Shown here: one piece after another, positions 5,144 through 17,219 of the stretch | Position numbering within the stretch: position 1 is the stretch's first letter | How the letters are laid out: each line of letters starts with the position of its first letter | Source of the DNA: a virus | Lineage: Duplodnaviria > Heunggongvirae > Uroviricota > Caudoviricetes | DNA: 52,139 nt | Virus record (IMG/VR): IMGVR_UViG_2541047752_000007 | Location: 1-52,139 of that record | Direction: 5' to 3' (one strand) | Translations under genes and position numbers: made by a program | Notes under the pieces: model-generated | What the model was told of the DNA's origin: nothing | What the model saw: the letters and a program-made list of their open reading frames with translations, nothing else | Database searches by the model: none

Positions 5144-5866
5144 TTATTGACAACAAACAATCTCTTTATATGTTTCTTCTACCATGTCGAATACTTCCGG
5201 CCTGTAATAAAAAAATTCAGTGCTACCATCAAACTTAACAGGGAAGTTTATTTTATAGTCACTGAAAGCATCGTGCATTTTGCTTTCTATTTCCTGCATA
5301 ATCTCAGTAGGCCCATTCCATGTTTTAACTACCTGTAAATCAGTCAGCCTTACACCTGCCTTACGAGCACTTTTAAATACTCTGTTCCTCCTTTCGTTCT
5401 CTTTTACGCTTACACCAATTTTCATTTGTGTAGGCACTTCAAGATCATCAACCATGATGTAAAGTTTTCCGTTGTAGTGTGATAAAAACCCGTATTTAGC
5501 GCATTTCGGGCAACCGCGCCCGCTCTTAATGTCTCTAGGTTTAGCCGACCACTCATGATCACAAACCTTGCAGCGGCATAATACTTTTGTACTGTTATTA
5601 ACTATTTCAACCAGCACTTCAATATCAGGATTAACCTTAGCAATAGCCGATATTTGTTCTTCATGCGATAACTTCATATTCCCAGCGCATTTCTGGCAAC
5701 CACGTCCATATTTAATATTGCTAGGTGTAGCCGACCATTCATGGTTACAAACTTTGCAGCGACATAATACTTTTGTACTGTTATTAACAATTTCCCCTAA
5801 CACTTCAACATCAGGATTAACTTTCGCGATAGCTGCAACTTGTTCTTCATGTGTTAACTTGCGCAT
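5144..5866 (-). CDS. T5orf172 (GIY-YIG-like) domain protein with duplicated N-terminal zinc ribbon
   Basis: 240 aa; two copies of HEEQxAAIAKVNPDxEVLxEIVNNSTKVLCRCKVCxHEWSA...GRGCxKCA; C-terminal GKLYIMVDD...KIGVS...TEFF matches T5orf172 pattern. Confidence 0.5.
   Translation of the reverse strand: MRKLTHEEQVAAIAKVNPDVEVLGEIVNNSTKVLCRCKVCNHEWSATPSNIKYGRGCQKCAGNMKLSHEEQISAIAKVNPDIEVLVEIVNNSTKVLCRCKVCDHEWSAKPRDIKSGRGCPKCAKYGFLSHYNGKLYIMVDDLEVPTQMKIGVSVKENERRNRVFKSARKAGVRLTDLQVVKTWNGPTEIMQEIESKMHDAFSDYKINFPVKFDGSTEFFYYRPEVFDMVEETYKEIVCCQ
5490..5866. repeat. intragenic tandem duplication, about 180-bp unit x2
   Basis: 5570-5700 and 5750-5870 are near-identical (e.g. gcagcggcataatacttttgtactgttattaac vs gcagcgacataatacttttgtactgttattaac). 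Confidence 0.8.
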
Positions 5867-9007: not shown

Positions 9008-9298
9008 ATGAGCGTTACAATTATATATGGTAAATGTGATAGCAAAATGAATGCCAGGGAACGCAGAAGGATAAAAAGAGAAAACGAAAGAAAATCATCA
9101 CCTGCAATCAATAAAACAGACAATGTGGATAAAGCTATTCGATTTGCAAACGAGGAAAGATGCAAACCAAATAGCATTAAAGAACGTCGCAAAGGATCAG
9201 TAAAATGGTATACGGAAAATGAAAGCGGCAGCTACTACCACGCAACGCAACCACGCCATTTAGGGGAAAAACCCCTGGATAAAGTCCGCTACCATTAA
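9008..9298 (+). CDS. basic protein with arginine-rich N-terminal motif, possible N-like antiterminator
   Basis: 96 aa; NARERRRIKRENERK resembles an arginine-rich RNA-binding motif; first gene after promoter and long leader. Confidence 0.35.
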   Translation: MSVTIIYGKCDSKMNARERRRIKRENERKSSPAINKTDNVDKAIRFANEERCKPNSIKERRKGSVKWYTENESGSYYHATQPRHLGEKPLDKVRYH

Positions 9299-9328
9299 TA
9301 CAAAATGTAAACATCCGGAGATGACATT

Positions 9329-9451
9329 ATGGTTATTCAGGCGCTTCAATTCAAACTGGCAGTAGCGGAAATGCTTCACGATGCCGAAATGTGGAGCGCC
9401 GCGAATAAAGCCTTATACATAGTGTTAACAGCACGGGAGATTAAATGGTGA
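9329..9451 (+). CDS. hypothetical small protein (40 aa)
   Basis: Hand-translated MVIQALQFKLAVAEMLHDAEMWSAANKALYIVLTAREIKW; GGAG RBS; stop overlaps erf start. Confidence 0.3.
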   Translation: MVIQALQFKLAVAEMLHDAEMWSAANKALYIVLTAREIKW

Positions 9452-13316: not shown

Positions 13317-13509
13317 ACATTACATGGAATGGAAAATTCCAGAAGCAGCAACAAAGGCAGCGCCAGGAAATTTTTCTGGCGTTTATTTTTATATGGATGG
13401 CAAATGGTATTTCGGCAGCAGGCCGGATCACTACTATCAAGAAATATGCAAGCCTCACGTATGGGATATTAAAGAGCGCGTGAAAGGCGGGGTAATTGAG
13501 GACGTTTAA
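13306..13509 (+). CDS. hypothetical protein
   Basis: 67 aa ORF. Confidence 0.35.
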   Translation: MKFKHYMEWKIPEAATKAAPGNFSGVYFYMDGKWYFGSRPDHYYQEICKPHVWDIKERVKGGVIEDV

Positions 13510-13510
13510 A

Positions 13511-13747
13511 ATGCTTAAGAGCTTTTTTAACTGGTTGGGGGTGTGGCTTTTGGCTACGCTTTTTGTTTTCCTGGCGGCCCTGACTGTTATCGGTGTTATT
13601 ATGCTGGGTGCTATGTTTATTACGTGGTCGCTTCCTGAATTTAACGACATTGGGAATATTCTTTTTGCAGCCCGCGCTTTATTGGCTGTTAGCGCATTCA
13701 TTGGTTTTTGCTGGACTGCCGCGCCGGATTGGACTGACACATGGTGA
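13511..13747 (+). CDS. small membrane protein (two predicted TM helices)
   Basis: MLKSFFNWLGVWLLATLFVFLAALTVIGVIMLGAMFITW...; GAGGA RBS. Confidence 0.4.
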   Translation: MLKSFFNWLGVWLLATLFVFLAALTVIGVIMLGAMFITWSLPEFNDIGNILFAARALLAVSAFIGFCWTAAPDWTDTW

Positions 13748-13751
13748 TCCT

Positions 13752-13985
13752 ATGGCCTTATTCAATATGTCAGAGCCGCAATTTAACGCCGTAAAGACTG
13801 CCGCCCGCGCCGCGCTTTCGGCCTGCAAAGCGGAGGTAGAGAAGAACGGCTACAGCGATAAAGCCACGCGGCTGATATTAGATAAGCATTATCGCAAGGT
13901 CGCCCCGCTAATCAGTATTGAGCGTTTTGTGTGGTTGGTGGGGTATCTGAATAACCGCTGGGGAACAGATCAGGATTATTTCTAA
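13752..13985 (+). CDS. hypothetical protein
   Basis: 77 aa, MALFNMSEP start. Confidence 0.35.
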   Translation: MALFNMSEPQFNAVKTAARAALSACKAEVEKNGYSDKATRLILDKHYRKVAPLISIERFVWLVGYLNNRWGTDQDYF

Positions 13986-13994
13986 GGGGGCGTA

Positions 13995-14534
13995 ATGAAA
14001 AATGATTACGGCGGCAGCCATACGCCGAAAGAAATAAAGGACTTATGGCAAACGCCAAAACCCGTTTTTAGAGGAATGGATCGGGAATTCGAGTTCGTCG
14101 CGGATGTGGCGGCAAACAAGGAAAACGCATTAATCCCGAGATATATAACCGAAGAAATGGACACGCTCCATTATCCGTGGGGAGCGGTGGCGATGCCTGG
14201 TGAGTATGTCTGGATGAATCCGCCATATTCTAATCCGGGACCATTCGTTGATAAGGCGGCGCTTGAACATCAACGAAATCACATTGGCTGTGTAATGCTA
14301 TTGCCCGCTGACATTTCTGTTAGCTGGTTTATGAACGGCGTGGAGACGGCAAACGAATGCCGATTAATCACGCGCGGGCGGCTGGCGTTTATCAATGCTG
14401 CAACAGGGAAACCAGTAAGCGGGAACAATAAGGGGAGCTTGTTCTTGATCTGGCATCCACGATGCAGACATGAATGTATTTTCACGCAGATAACACGTAA
14501 AGAGCTATATGCAAGAGGTGCAGATAATGACTAA
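13995..14534 (+). CDS. dam: phage-type DNA N6-adenine methyltransferase (Dam family)
   Basis: 179 aa; LWQTPKPVF N-terminus and catalytic NPPYS motif. Confidence 0.8.
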   Translation: MKNDYGGSHTPKEIKDLWQTPKPVFRGMDREFEFVADVAANKENALIPRYITEEMDTLHYPWGAVAMPGEYVWMNPPYSNPGPFVDKAALEHQRNHIGCVMLLPADISVSWFMNGVETANECRLITRGRLAFINAATGKPVSGNNKGSLFLIWHPRCRHECIFTQITRKELYARGADND

Positions 14535-14859
14535 GGCAGCAGATTTATTGAGACTTGCAGCGGAAACCATAGAGCAAAGAGGTAAACAAAACGGCTACGA
14601 CAAAAAAGAGGAAAAATCAGCGCCAAAAATAGCCACTATTTACAACGCTAAGAAGGGAGCAGATTTAACCCCGCTTGATGTATGGGATCTGCTAATTTGT
14701 CTCAAGGAGGCGCGTTTAGAGGCCATTTTAAGCAATAAATCAGATCCGACAGACACGCTAATTGATTTGATTAGCTATAACGCGCTAAAAGCGGAGCAAA
14801 TATTAACGGAGCGGGAGGAAGCCCAAAGAAAGAAACGGGCTGTTTTGATATACCGTTAA
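14527..14859 (+). CDS. hypothetical protein
   Basis: 110 aa from ATG 14527 (GAGGTG RBS). Confidence 0.4.
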   Translation: MTKAADLLRLAAETIEQRGKQNGYDKKEEKSAPKIATIYNAKKGADLTPLDVWDLLICLKEARLEAILSNKSDPTDTLIDLISYNALKAEQILTEREEAQRKKRAVLIYR

Positions 14860-14925
14860 ATTGCGGCTGTAAGAATGCCTCAATACCAGGCGACTTAATC
14901 GCCAGCAGCAAGGTAACGCTAAATA

Positions 14926-15501
14926 GTGTCCTTGCAAACAGGCTTGATGGTAAGTGTGATAACGAATCACTACTACGCGCGGCGGGGTATCATAAAAATG
15001 GAAAGGGTGACAATTGACAGGTTATTGGCCTGCATTTATGTCGCCGTTTTCGTGATCATTAACCTTATTGTTAACCACTGCGGCCCGTGGGTAATTCCGA
15101 TCACCACGGTAGCCGCCGTGTGCGTCAATATGATGATCCGTGACTTCCTGTTATATGACGGCGGCCTGAAATGGTCGGCTACAACATGCGCCGCCGCTGG
15201 CGCAATCACGGTGCTGATAAACTACGATGCCGGGATGGTGGCGATCGCGTCATTCGTCGCGGTTGTTTCCGGTGCGCTTATTTCTGGCGGTGTTTACCGG
15301 ATTTTACCTGGCGATTTCGATTCAAAACGCTGGCCTGCGAATATAGCGTCCGCCATTGGTGATGCGTTAATTTTTCCCACGCTATCGTTTATGGCATTTA
15401 TGCCGGAAATATCAGCTATGCAATTCATCTCAAAAATGGCGGCTGTAACGGTGATCACTATCATCATTCGTCGCTATTTTACGTTCGAGGGTAGGAAATG
15501 A
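14926..15501 (+). CDS. integral membrane protein (4-5 predicted TM helices)
   Basis: Hydrophobic segments throughout; likely start ATG 14998 (MERVTIDRLL). Confidence 0.5.
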   Translation: MSLQTGLMVSVITNHYYARRGIIKMERVTIDRLLACIYVAVFVIINLIVNHCGPWVIPITTVAAVCVNMMIRDFLLYDGGLKWSATTCAAAGAITVLINYDAGMVAIASFVAVVSGALISGGVYRILPGDFDSKRWPANIASAIGDALIFPTLSFMAFMPEISAMQFISKMAAVTVITIIIRRYFTFEGRK

Positions 15502-16262
15502 GTGGGCTTAGAAATTGGGTGGTGTGGTCGCTGTACGACGGCAGCGGGTACGCCGTTAAAGATTGGGCCGACGCTGGCTATAAGTGTTATTGTTTCAATT
15601 ATGACGGCGCTAATCATGGCGATTATGAAGGCGTCAAGATCATTCATCCTAACATTGAATATGTCAACGTATGGATTGACAGCCATTTCCTGGTAATGTT
15701 CTCCCCTGAATTGTCTGTTTATCCAGATCCTGACATTATCCTGGGCTTTCCTCCGTGCGACGATCTTGCGGTGTCCGGCGCTCGTTGGTTTTCAAGCAAG
15801 CGTGAAAAAGATCCTTACTTCCAGCAGAAGGCGGCATACAACGCAAAACTGGTAGAAACGCTTGCTGACATGTACCACGTCCCGTGGATGGTGGAAAACC
15901 CGGTTGGAGCACTGTCAACGTTATGGCGTAAGCCGGATTTCATTTTTAATCCGTGCGCTTACGGTGGCTACCTGCCGGAAGATGATAAGCATCCAGCTTT
16001 CCCGGAATACATCGCCGACCGCGACGCCTACACGAAGAAAACTTGTATCTGGTGCGGCAACGGATTTAAACAGCCGCTATTTCGGCCTGTACCAATGCCT
16101 GATGAGTGGGAAGATAGTAAGCAGCACGCGAAGTTAGGCGGGAAGTCGAAGCGCACTAAGATGATCCGCTCACTCACGCCGCGAGGATTCGCCCGTGCTG
16201 TATTCCTGGCTAATGACCGGGCAATCACGCGGACTACTCTTAACCGCGTTTTACCGGATTGA
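15498..16262 (+). CDS. compact DNA cytosine-5 methyltransferase-like protein
   Basis: 254 aa; motif I-like SLYDGSGY, PC motif GFPPCDDLAVSG, ENV motif WMVENPVG; no obvious target-recognition domain. Confidence 0.5.
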   Translation: MSGLRNWVVWSLYDGSGYAVKDWADAGYKCYCFNYDGANHGDYEGVKIIHPNIEYVNVWIDSHFLVMFSPELSVYPDPDIILGFPPCDDLAVSGARWFSSKREKDPYFQQKAAYNAKLVETLADMYHVPWMVENPVGALSTLWRKPDFIFNPCAYGGYLPEDDKHPAFPEYIADRDAYTKKTCIWCGNGFKQPLFRPVPMPDEWEDSKQHAKLGGKSKRTKMIRSLTPRGFARAVFLANDRAITRTTLNRVLPD

Positions 16263-16422
16263 TGTTTACAAAATGGCGTCATTGTGTGATGTGGATCACA
16301 TAATGGCGCTTTATTGTTTGTTCGCATGTATCCGTTTTGTATACTTCAAACAAACAAAATGCTCTTTAAAAATCCGGTAACGCTGAAATGCGTAAAAATC
16401 ACCTGAAAAAGGAGAGAGCATT

Positions 16423-16599
16423 ATGTCTTTTGAGAATTACCAATGGCATGACGACTATGAACGGGAAAGTGTCATGCGTGCAATGTGCAGTGTATGCAGC
16501 ACGAAGAAGGGAGAATGTAACGAGTGCAACGAATGCGTAGATCGCTTGCTAAGGGCTGGACACGCCGAAAGGCTGAACGAAACAGAGAATCAAGAATAA
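16423..16599 (+). CDS. small cysteine-rich protein (58 aa)
   Basis: MSFENYQWHDDYERESVMRAMCSVCSTKKGECNECNECVDRLLRAGHAERLNETENQE; below ORF-track cutoff. Confidence 0.3.
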   Translation: MSFENYQWHDDYERESVMRAMCSVCSTKKGECNECNECVDRLLRAGHAERLNETENQE

Positions 16600-16613
16600 T
16601 CGGGGTGGTTTTT

Positions 16614-17219
16614 ATGCAAAACCCTAAGAAACCAATAAGACGCCGTTGCAAATGCTGCGGCGTTTTTTTTGAGCCTAAATATCACAACCAGACGTGGTGC
16701 AGTGAAGAATGTCTGGAAGAACTGAAATTTGATCAGCTATGCCGCGACCGTGAAAAGGCAATGAAGGCGATGGAACGGAAGAAACGCCGTGACAGCCAGC
16801 GCGAGGAACGAAACCGGAAGCGGAAACAGTTAAATCCGCGCAGCTACTGGATCAAGCAAGTTCAAAATGTATTTAACGCCTATATCCGCGAACGTGACGC
16901 GCGGTTGCCGTGCATATCCTGCGGGACTTACTACGGTGAGCAATGCGGGTGGGATGCCGGACACTATAGGACGGTTGCCGCTGCCGGACACCTTCGCTTT
17001 AACGAAGATAATTGCCATAAACAATGTAGACACTGCAACCAGACGTTAGACGGCAACATCGGAGGTTATCGCCCGGCACTGATTAGAAAAATCGGCCTCG
17101 CCAGGGTGGTAGCACTGGAGAACAACAACGATACGCACAAATGGACGATCGCAGAATGTAAGGAGCTAATAAACATCTACCAGGCGAAATTGGACGCCTT
17201 AAGGAGAAAGGCAGCATGA
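16614..17219 (+). CDS. ninG: NinG/Rap recombination protein
   Basis: Start at MQNPKK; RRCKCCGVFFEP, PRSYWIKQ, LPCISCG, WDAGHYR, LRFNE, HKQC align with remembered lambda NinG. Confidence 0.8.
   Translation: MQNPKKPIRRRCKCCGVFFEPKYHNQTWCSEECLEELKFDQLCRDREKAMKAMERKKRRDSQREERNRKRKQLNPRSYWIKQVQNVFNAYIRERDARLPCISCGTYYGEQCGWDAGHYRTVAAAGHLRFNEDNCHKQCRHCNQTLDGNIGGYRPALIRKIGLARVVALENNNDTHKWTIAECKELINIYQAKLDALRRKAA

Follow-up and report, generated by a model that had tools for sequence, protein, structure and literature searches.

A compact protein with a C5-cytosine methyltransferase fold, encoded by an mEp021-type prophage of Escherichia coli, belongs to a large phage family that lacks the small domain

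Type II C5-cytosine methyltransferases (C5-MTases; PF00145), among them M.HhaI, M.HaeIII and Dcm, are proteins of ~320-450 aa with a target-recognition domain of 80-100 residues and a motif VI that reads ENV. A common form of motif IV in C5-MTases is GGPPCQ, in which Gln follows the catalytic Cys. The target-recognition domain of DNMT3 is the smallest among the solved C5-MTases, and its motif IV is PCNDLS in the verified sequence, with Asn after the Cys. CmoX, a phage DNA cytosine C5-carboxymethyltransferase (PDB 8yf3), is defined by an SPPC motif together with an Arg that replaces Asn304 of M.HhaI, and is usually encoded beside cmoA and an amide ligase (PMC12783734). The subject of this study is C5L, a protein of 254 aa from the PHROG 757 family that is encoded on the + strand at positions 15498-16262 of a 52,139-nucleotide virus record (IMG/VR IMGVR_UViG_2541047752_000007, the whole of which we refer to as the window). 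C5L shares the motif order I, IV and VI with the type II enzymes, and with the DNMT3A/DNMT3B catalytic domain it shares an SL(F/Y)DG motif I, a PC-x-DL motif IV and the lack of a Gln after the Cys. In contrast to the type II enzymes, it has no target-recognition domain of 80-100 residues, its motif VI reads ENP, and its compact family measures only 227-254 aa; it is also 30-60 residues shorter than the DNMT3 catalytic domain, and the CmoX chain 8yf3_A has 333 residues. An earlier reading made from the letters alone (below, the sequence-only reading) had described C5L as a truncated, variant C5-MTase that forms a "methylation island" with a Dam-like gene and a membrane-protein gene, and all three open reading frames (ORFs) do exist on the + strand.

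The identification of C5L comes from the PHROGs database and from structure comparison alone. Its match to phrog_757, "DNA methyltransferase", has an E-value of 1.2e-87 and aligns residues 5-247 with profile positions 13-226 of 247. An AlphaFold2 model built with 28 homologues (predicted local distance difference test, pLDDT, 87.4; predicted template modelling score, pTM, 0.88) has seven strands alternating with helices, and the top 50 Foldseek matches of this model were all DNMT3A/B/C or DNMT1, with a prob of 1.00 and E-values of ~1e-6. Bridges at the level of sequence are provided by the relatives of C5L. Three homologues (P0012, P0069 and P0101) exceed the PF00145 threshold, with 24.7-28.5 bits vs 22, their coverage being profile positions 4-94 and hence motifs I-IV only. 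A profile of close homologues aligns the segment from SLFDG through PC-x-DL with DNMT3B (SLFDGIATG) at an E-value of 0.08, and hhalign aligns motifs I-IV alone of C5L with DNMT3A at a probability of 42%. Comparison of profiles and structures with those of C5-MTases, which the sequence-only reading had put forward as a check, has thus found a methyltransferase fold. The PHROG 757 match, the model with its Foldseek matches and these bridges together make the fold, motif I and the Pro-Cys of motif IV well supported, and it is very probable that C5L belongs to the C5-MTases by fold and by family. Alignment of C5L with M.HhaI by hhalign gave nothing meaningful, and when a broader profile of the C5L family was compared with the PDB only noise was returned and the similarity to DNMT3 was gone. 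We regard the sequence resemblance to DNMT3 as marginal and, because it is lost with the broader profile, do not claim a specific evolutionary link. Since the hhalign mapping is limited to motifs I-IV, the equivalences proposed below for motifs VIII and X go beyond it and are tentative.

Motif I, SLYDGSGY (residues 11-18; 15528-15551, + strand), is the S-adenosylmethionine (SAM)-binding loop after strand 1, aligned with DNMT3B by a hidden Markov model and with DNMT3A by hhalign. Motif IV, GFPPCDDLAVSG (residues 83-94; 15744-15779, +), aligns with the SPCNDLS of DNMT3B/3A and contains the putative catalytic Cys87. Motif VI, VENPVG (residues 132-137; 15891-15908, +), at the end of strand 5, is assigned by its position and by the order of the motifs; in the model E133-N134-P135-V136 lie on strand E130-134, which we read as the likely ENP variant of this motif. 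All conservation counts given here are from an alignment of 60 relatives that are 28-58% identical to the C5L of the window. In motif I, L12 is kept in 57/60, D14 in 51/60 and G17 in 47/60 relatives; in motif IV, Pro85 is kept in 57, Cys87 in 58 and Gly94 in all 60; and in motif VI the counts are 58 for Glu133, 56 for Asn134 and 60 for Pro135. The positions kept in at least 90% of the relatives are L12, W23, G27, P85, C87, G94, K101, A112, E133, N134 and P135 up to motif VI, followed by F150, P152, D176, Y178, K180, T182, W185, P193, R224, P228, G230 and A234. The sequence-only reading had quoted motifs I, IV and VI, and the quoted residues are present and kept across the 60 relatives; with Cys87, Pro85 and the ENP retained in 56-60 of them, these are not chance matches. 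It had also called the PPC of motif IV unusual. PPC itself is not unusual, and what does stand out is the residue after the Cys, which is Asp in C5L (a position held by Asn in DNMT3) and Thr in most relatives, and not the Gln of type II enzymes.

The part of C5L that follows motif VI departs most from the known enzymes. A family-specific insert between strands 6 and 7 (15948-16067, +; P152, YGGYL, HP and RDAY-K-T-W) ends in strand 7, and this conserved stretch of ~30 residues distinguishes C5L from DNMT3. In it P152 is kept in 60/60, Y158 in 53/60, D176 in 56/60, Y178 in 59/60, K180 and T182 each in 57/60 and W185 in 59/60 relatives, the last five marking the strand 7 region. Past strand 7 (residues 182-187) the model has only a loop and three short helices. 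The interval between strand 7 and the C-terminal helix is ~40 residues long (188-228) and is modelled with low to moderate confidence (pLDDT 61-68 for residues 201-220), whereas the matching intervals are ~130 residues in M.HhaI and ~90 in DNMT3A, as counted on PDB-verified sequences. What is left of the small domain (16068-16214, +) consists of a low-confidence loop, a basic segment, KLGGKSKRTKMIRS, and the start of a motif-X-like helix, LTPRGFARAVFLAN. Judged from the model, the target-recognition domain and motif IX, which together form the small domain, are as good as gone and cut down to these ~40 residues, and the sequence-only reading was right that a normal target-recognition domain is lacking. 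The C-terminal helix spans residues 229-251, and the segment with which it starts, LTPRGFARAV, includes P228-R229-G230-F231; its PRGF appears to resemble motif X of DNMT3A (LLGRSWSVPV, with G-R-S-W). Conservation in this part is high for R224 (59/60), P228 (56/60), G230 (57/60) and A234 (57/60), and lower for R229 (48/60).

This C-terminal segment, together with the Pro-Pro-Cys of motif IV, raises the question of whether C5L could resemble CmoX in transferring a group other than methyl. In that case C5L would take a carboxymethyl group from carboxy-SAM (Cx-SAM) supplied by the CmoA of the host and produce 5-carboxymethylcytosine. CmoX combines SPPC with an Arg; C5L has FPPC and, just before the C-terminal helix, Arg229 as a candidate for that Arg, its model has a structural match to CmoX 8yf3, and E. 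coli CmoA is enough to supply Cx-SAM to a heterologous CmoX. However, the C5L motif is FPPC, with the Phe present in 52/60 relatives, and not SPPC, and Arg229 is kept in only 80% of the relatives. DNMT3A carries an Arg at its GR position (sequence verified), which we take to be equivalent to the Arg position of CmoX, and yet uses SAM, so an Arg at this position of C5L is not diagnostic of a CmoX-type enzyme. In addition, neither cmoA nor an amide-ligase gene was found among the early-region proteins that were scanned, in the mEp021 annotation, or in any locus examined. We therefore regard a CmoX-type transfer as very improbable.

The compact form of C5L is not peculiar to the window. A word-indexed search returned 2,367 clusters at 90% identity, the best 120 of which are mostly 226-262 aa, and an exhaustive search returned 1,278 clusters at 50% identity (E <= 1e-3), typically of 210-260 aa. 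By tblastn, homologues are present in 1,516 of 50,697 phage records, or ~3% of phage genomes. They occur in phages of Escherichia, Klebsiella, Salmonella, Shigella, Vibrio and even Arthrobacter, and the phage types concerned include T1-like Drexlerviridae, Dhillonvirus, Jersey-like, 9NA, Webervirus and rV5-like phages and 150-kb myoviruses. Proteins of this type are annotated "DNA methyltransferase" in many phages and often "hypothetical protein" in RefSeq, and no Pfam or NCBIfam model covers the compact family. Within the mEp group the ratio of nonsynonymous to synonymous substitution rates (dN/dS) of C5L is 0.039, with dS up to 0.76. The size of the family, its conserved residues and this ratio indicate a functional protein under selection. 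The compact length is the norm of the family, and the small domain is absent throughout it. The description of C5L as truncated is thus not upheld, since this family is very large and is kept by strong purifying selection.

On this basis we think it probable, though by no means assured, that C5L is a stand-alone SAM-dependent DNA 5-methylcytosine (m5C) methylase that acts on a short motif, is made early and pre-protects phage DNA. The block that contains it sits in the rightward early operon between Erf/SSB and NinG/RusA/Q and codes for four independent accessory proteins. C5L keeps the full seven-stranded SAM-methyltransferase core with motifs I, IV and VI and a C-terminal helix that resembles motif X; it would bind SAM and flip out a cytosine, Cys87 would attack C6 of the base, and the methyl group would go to C5. 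The recognition surface is tiny, which suggests that C5L probably reads a very short sequence. Made during lytic growth, C5L and Dam would methylate the replicating phage DNA before it is packaged, and the progeny would already be protected from restriction enzymes when they reach the next host. The activity, substrate, specificity and anti-restriction role of C5L are in this sense what we infer from its fold, motifs and setting. Palindrome statistics of the window gave no information on its target; across the whole window the under-represented tetranucleotide palindromes were CTAG (observed/expected 0.25), GTAC (0.62) and GGCC (0.69).

Several observations weigh against this reading. C5L has no match in Pfam, NCBIfam or the PDB sequences, and PF00145 is not matched even at an E-value of 10. 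The canonical QxRxR of motif VIII is not recognisable in C5L, and in a tentative alignment the Arg that contacts cytosine in M.HhaI/DNMT3A falls on Thr182 or Lys180. Neither is motif IX recognisable, and both this motif and the RxR of motif VIII set DNMT3 apart from C5L. At the position of motif II, the enterobacterial clade has Asn34 vs an Asp in the wider family. No measured specificity or activity of any member of the C5L family was found in the searchable literature. McrBC cuts purine-5mC DNA, and phages with a C5L-family gene are given in the host column as isolated on K-12 MG1655; this suggests that C5L does not target a purine-C context that occurs frequently, or else that its methylation is partial or sparse. 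In favour of the reading, C5 and N6 methyltransferases are abundant in Drexlerviridae and have been proposed to counter restriction (PMC8594841). In the BASEL study, however, resistance of these phages to restriction was not related in any simple way to the methyltransferase genes that they carry (PMC8594841). This last result tempers the anti-restriction role that we propose for C5L.

Some of the same observations would fit a protein that acts on RNA or tRNA, like DNMT2, or on single-stranded DNA, or one that is a non-catalytic binder or decoy against host defences. The absence of a target-recognition domain and motif IX, the motif VIII arginines that cannot be recognised and the methyltransferase genes uncorrelated with a restriction phenotype (PMC8594841) could all be read in this way. 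On the other hand, the near-invariant Pro-Cys and Glu-Asn-Pro favour covalent C5 catalysis, and the conserved catalytic residues argue against an inactive protein. The best structural matches of C5L are DNMT3-type DNA enzymes, and its gene is located among DNA-metabolism genes in many phage types. We consider this group of explanations unlikely, and the stand-alone DNA methylase remains the reading that we prefer.

M.AquI is a split C5-methyltransferase, and C5L could in the same manner be a catalytic subunit that needs a DNA-recognition partner encoded separately. The small domain is missing from C5L, and within the mEp phages C5L is translationally coupled to the membrane-protein gene just upstream, the start of C5L and the stop of that gene sharing an ATGA. 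That neighbour, however, is a membrane transporter homologue, and among 41 loci outside the mEp group (C5L 55-61% identical) there is no neighbouring protein family shared across phage types; the best neighbour family occurs in 22/41 of these loci, all from one phage type. The longer members of the C5L family (290-450 aa) have no added Pfam domains, which also speaks against a requirement for a partner subunit, and we judge such a requirement to be quite improbable. Members of 320-450 aa, such as P0219, P0232, P0123, P0149 and P0168, have N- or C-terminal extensions that match no Pfam domain, which could be fusions supplying the missing DNA-recognition part or could be gene-calling artefacts.

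The sequence-only reading had treated the neighbourhood of C5L as one methylation island. Between the Dam and membrane-protein genes there is a fourth gene that it omitted, encoding a DUF6378 protein, and the order Dam, DUF6378, membrane protein, C5L, NinG and RusA is kept in 41/41 mEp-type loci from IMG/VR and GenBank. It is also kept in a distant relative (L083), in which the membrane protein is 54% and C5L 65% identical. Because the whole genome arm is syntenic, however, the kept order of the block carries no extra information. Terminator-like hairpins flank the four-gene block on either side. The upstream one (13359-13383, +), found by a pattern scan and matching the consensus only, corresponds to TERM_3 in the mEp021 annotation; the downstream one (16275-16310, +), from the same type of scan, has a 16-bp stem, begins 13 nt past the C5L stop and corresponds to TERM_4 of mEp021. 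In an unrelated polA-type phage, genes for DUF6378 (174 aa), a homologue of the membrane protein (158 aa; of the VUT family, as discussed below) and an N6/N4 DNA methylase occur within ~5 kb (L087 2360-7794; L088 2300-7734), which shows that loose groupings of such genes turn up repeatedly in the early regions of phages, and do so without C5L.

The kept order, the bracketing hairpins and the cluster in the polA-type phage could suggest that the four genes make up one integrated modification system in which the transporter imports a precursor or cofactor for the methylases. Against this, the synteny covers the whole arm, and in 41/41 of the non-mEp loci there is no Dam, DUF6378 or VUT gene within 4 kb of C5L. 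C5L is likewise missing from the vicinity of membrane-protein relatives encoded by another phage, by bacteria and by the polA-type phage. The cited substrate of VUT proteins is preQ0 (YhhQ; PMC6884629), and neither DpdA nor TGT is encoded in the early region. We find an integrated system highly improbable, and a functional link among the four genes was rejected on the grounds that C5L stands alone in all 41 non-mEp loci with no shared neighbour. The comparison of loci indicates that these are independent accessory genes that are adjacent in the mEp021-like lineage; since the four occur together only there, and C5L occurs without the others elsewhere, the island does not hold as a unit.

The first gene of the block (13995-14534, +) encodes a phage Dam-family N6-adenine DNA methyltransferase of 179 aa, as the sequence-only reading had proposed from its NPPY, which in the ORF translation occupies residues 75-78 (14217-14228, +). 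The protein matches PF05869 over its whole length at 2.5e-52 (177.4 bits vs a cutoff of 28.1), TIGR01712, "phage N-6-adenine-methyltransferase", with 143.4 bits vs a cutoff of 97.05, and phrog_111 at 1e-64. In its full-length match, its NPPY and its size it is like the phage Dam family (PF05869/TIGR01712), the members of which are ~170-180 aa, and by these comparisons it is an ordinary member, its GATC specificity being assumed from the family name. Its dN/dS in the mEp group is 0.062. GATC occurs in the window at expectation (observed/expected 1.0) and is thus not avoided, which is consistent with the window carrying a Dam enzyme.

The membrane protein (14998-15501, +; 167 aa) appears to be a short transporter homologue of the VUT/YhhQ family (PF02592, COG1738). 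E. coli YhhQ is ~220 aa and so longer than the homologue of the window, and apart from preQ0 the VUT family is tied to vitamin-type compounds and not to methyl donors. The mechanical ORF is 14926-15501, and the start backed by homologues is the ATG at 14998. The match to Vut_1 (PF02592) is weak but full-length (E-value 0.15; 12.9 bits vs a gathering cutoff of 27.2), and a homologue that is 54% identical (P0277) reaches 5e-4 and 20.8 bits, which is also below the cutoff. A profile of 8 homologues retrieves 14 PF02592 proteins of 158-196 aa with E-values of 3.6e-20 to 1.4e-5, one of which is named YhhQ/DUF165 by its source. The AlphaFold model has six helices, the number predicted for YhhQ/VUT proteins, at moderate confidence (pLDDT 64), and the top match among the viral models of BFVD is a "Putative vitamin uptake transporter" with a prob of 0.92. 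From the profile links, the six-helix model and the BFVD match the protein is therefore read as a probable VUT/YhhQ-family homologue, and its dN/dS in the mEp group, 0.046, indicates strong purifying selection. YhhQ imports preQ0, a queuosine precursor, and phage homologues of YhhQ were noted earlier, with no correlation with deazaguanine DNA-modification genes (PMC6884629). Here too, no DpdA or TGT of a deazaguanine or queuosine system that might account for a YhhQ-like gene was found in the early region of the phage. The phage encodes this VUT/YhhQ-type homologue but neither DpdA/TGT nor preQ0-synthesis genes.

The DUF6378 protein (14509-14859, +; likely ATG at 14527, giving 110 aa) is identified by matches to PF19905 (1.3e-7) and phrog_9871; no PDB relative was found for it, and it has no share in the methylase function. 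It ends at 14859 in the window (110-116 aa), vs 165-170 aa for the protein in mEp021 and MagusPhagus. Around 14843, five consecutive T in MagusPhagus correspond to four in the window, and the longer tail is partly readable in the +2 frame (14840-14997), the DNA further downstream being highly divergent between relatives. The short form is also present in three IMG/VR contigs (L003-L005), and so the form in the window is not a sequencing error.

As a whole, the window represents a temperate siphophage, or a prophage, from the E. coli mEp021 ("mEpimmI") group, and it is closely related to the Nus-dependent temperate E. coli siphophages of that group. Over 13500-16700 its identity is 92% with phage MagusPhagus and 85-87% with mEp013, mEp044, mEp010 and mEp021. 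Among 5,426 complete E. coli genomes, 35 carry the four-gene block as a prophage. On the leftward arm, genes for NinB, a DnaB-type helicase and replication proteins precede the gene for a CI-like repressor, and the rightward arm runs from Erf and SSB through small unknown genes and the methylase block to NinG, RusA and a Q-like antiterminator. The mEp021 record already gives Dam as "putative DNA N-6 adenine methyltransferase", the transporter homologue as "putative membrane protein" and C5L as "putative DNA cytosine methyltransferase". Two further ORFs lie just upstream of Dam: a small hydrophobic one of 83 aa (13496-13747), and a homologue of the mEp021 "ipe" (inducer of pleiotropic effects), with a likely ATG at ~13752 and its end at 13985. 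In the leftward operon, a 239-aa protein (5144-5866, - strand) has Pfam matches to a DUF4379 treble-clef zinc-finger, CapR-homology and MUG113 (T5orf172-like), a combination of domains that is unusual in a temperate phage's replication region. The more distant relative L083 encodes a Lar-like restriction-alleviation protein (PF14354) just past its Q gene (9188-9415); no homologue of it was found in the window by tblastn at 1e-3. Searches of the whole window for tRNA genes and Rfam families gave no match.

For the window, the outcome is mostly an annotation of an mEp021-type prophage with two orphan methylases, probably routine phage anti-restriction equipment, and an unrelated transporter homologue. 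What is new here is the structural support for the fold of C5L, the absence of the small domain throughout its family, the assignment of the membrane protein to the VUT family and the conclusion that the island is not a module. One speculative and rather unlikely extension is that the PHROG-757 proteins represent a minimal natural C5-MTase architecture, in which the bare catalytic domain does without a small domain. If this were true, they might have dinucleotide-level or nearly no specificity and would be for cytosine what the non-specific methylase M.EcoGII is for adenine; alternatively, they might recognise DNA via the 30-residue insert between strands 6 and 7, or transfer a non-methyl group from a SAM analogue made by the host. 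The DNMT3-like spelling of their motifs might also mark these proteins as relatives of a prokaryotic ancestor of DNMT3. The compact C5-methylase family is very common and includes proteins of laboratory coliphages (Drexlerviridae, Dhillonvirus, Jersey-like and rV5-like phages), and knowing its target would help explain the sensitivity of these phages to restriction and type IV systems. A member of the family could also serve as a cytosine methyltransferase tool of very small size.

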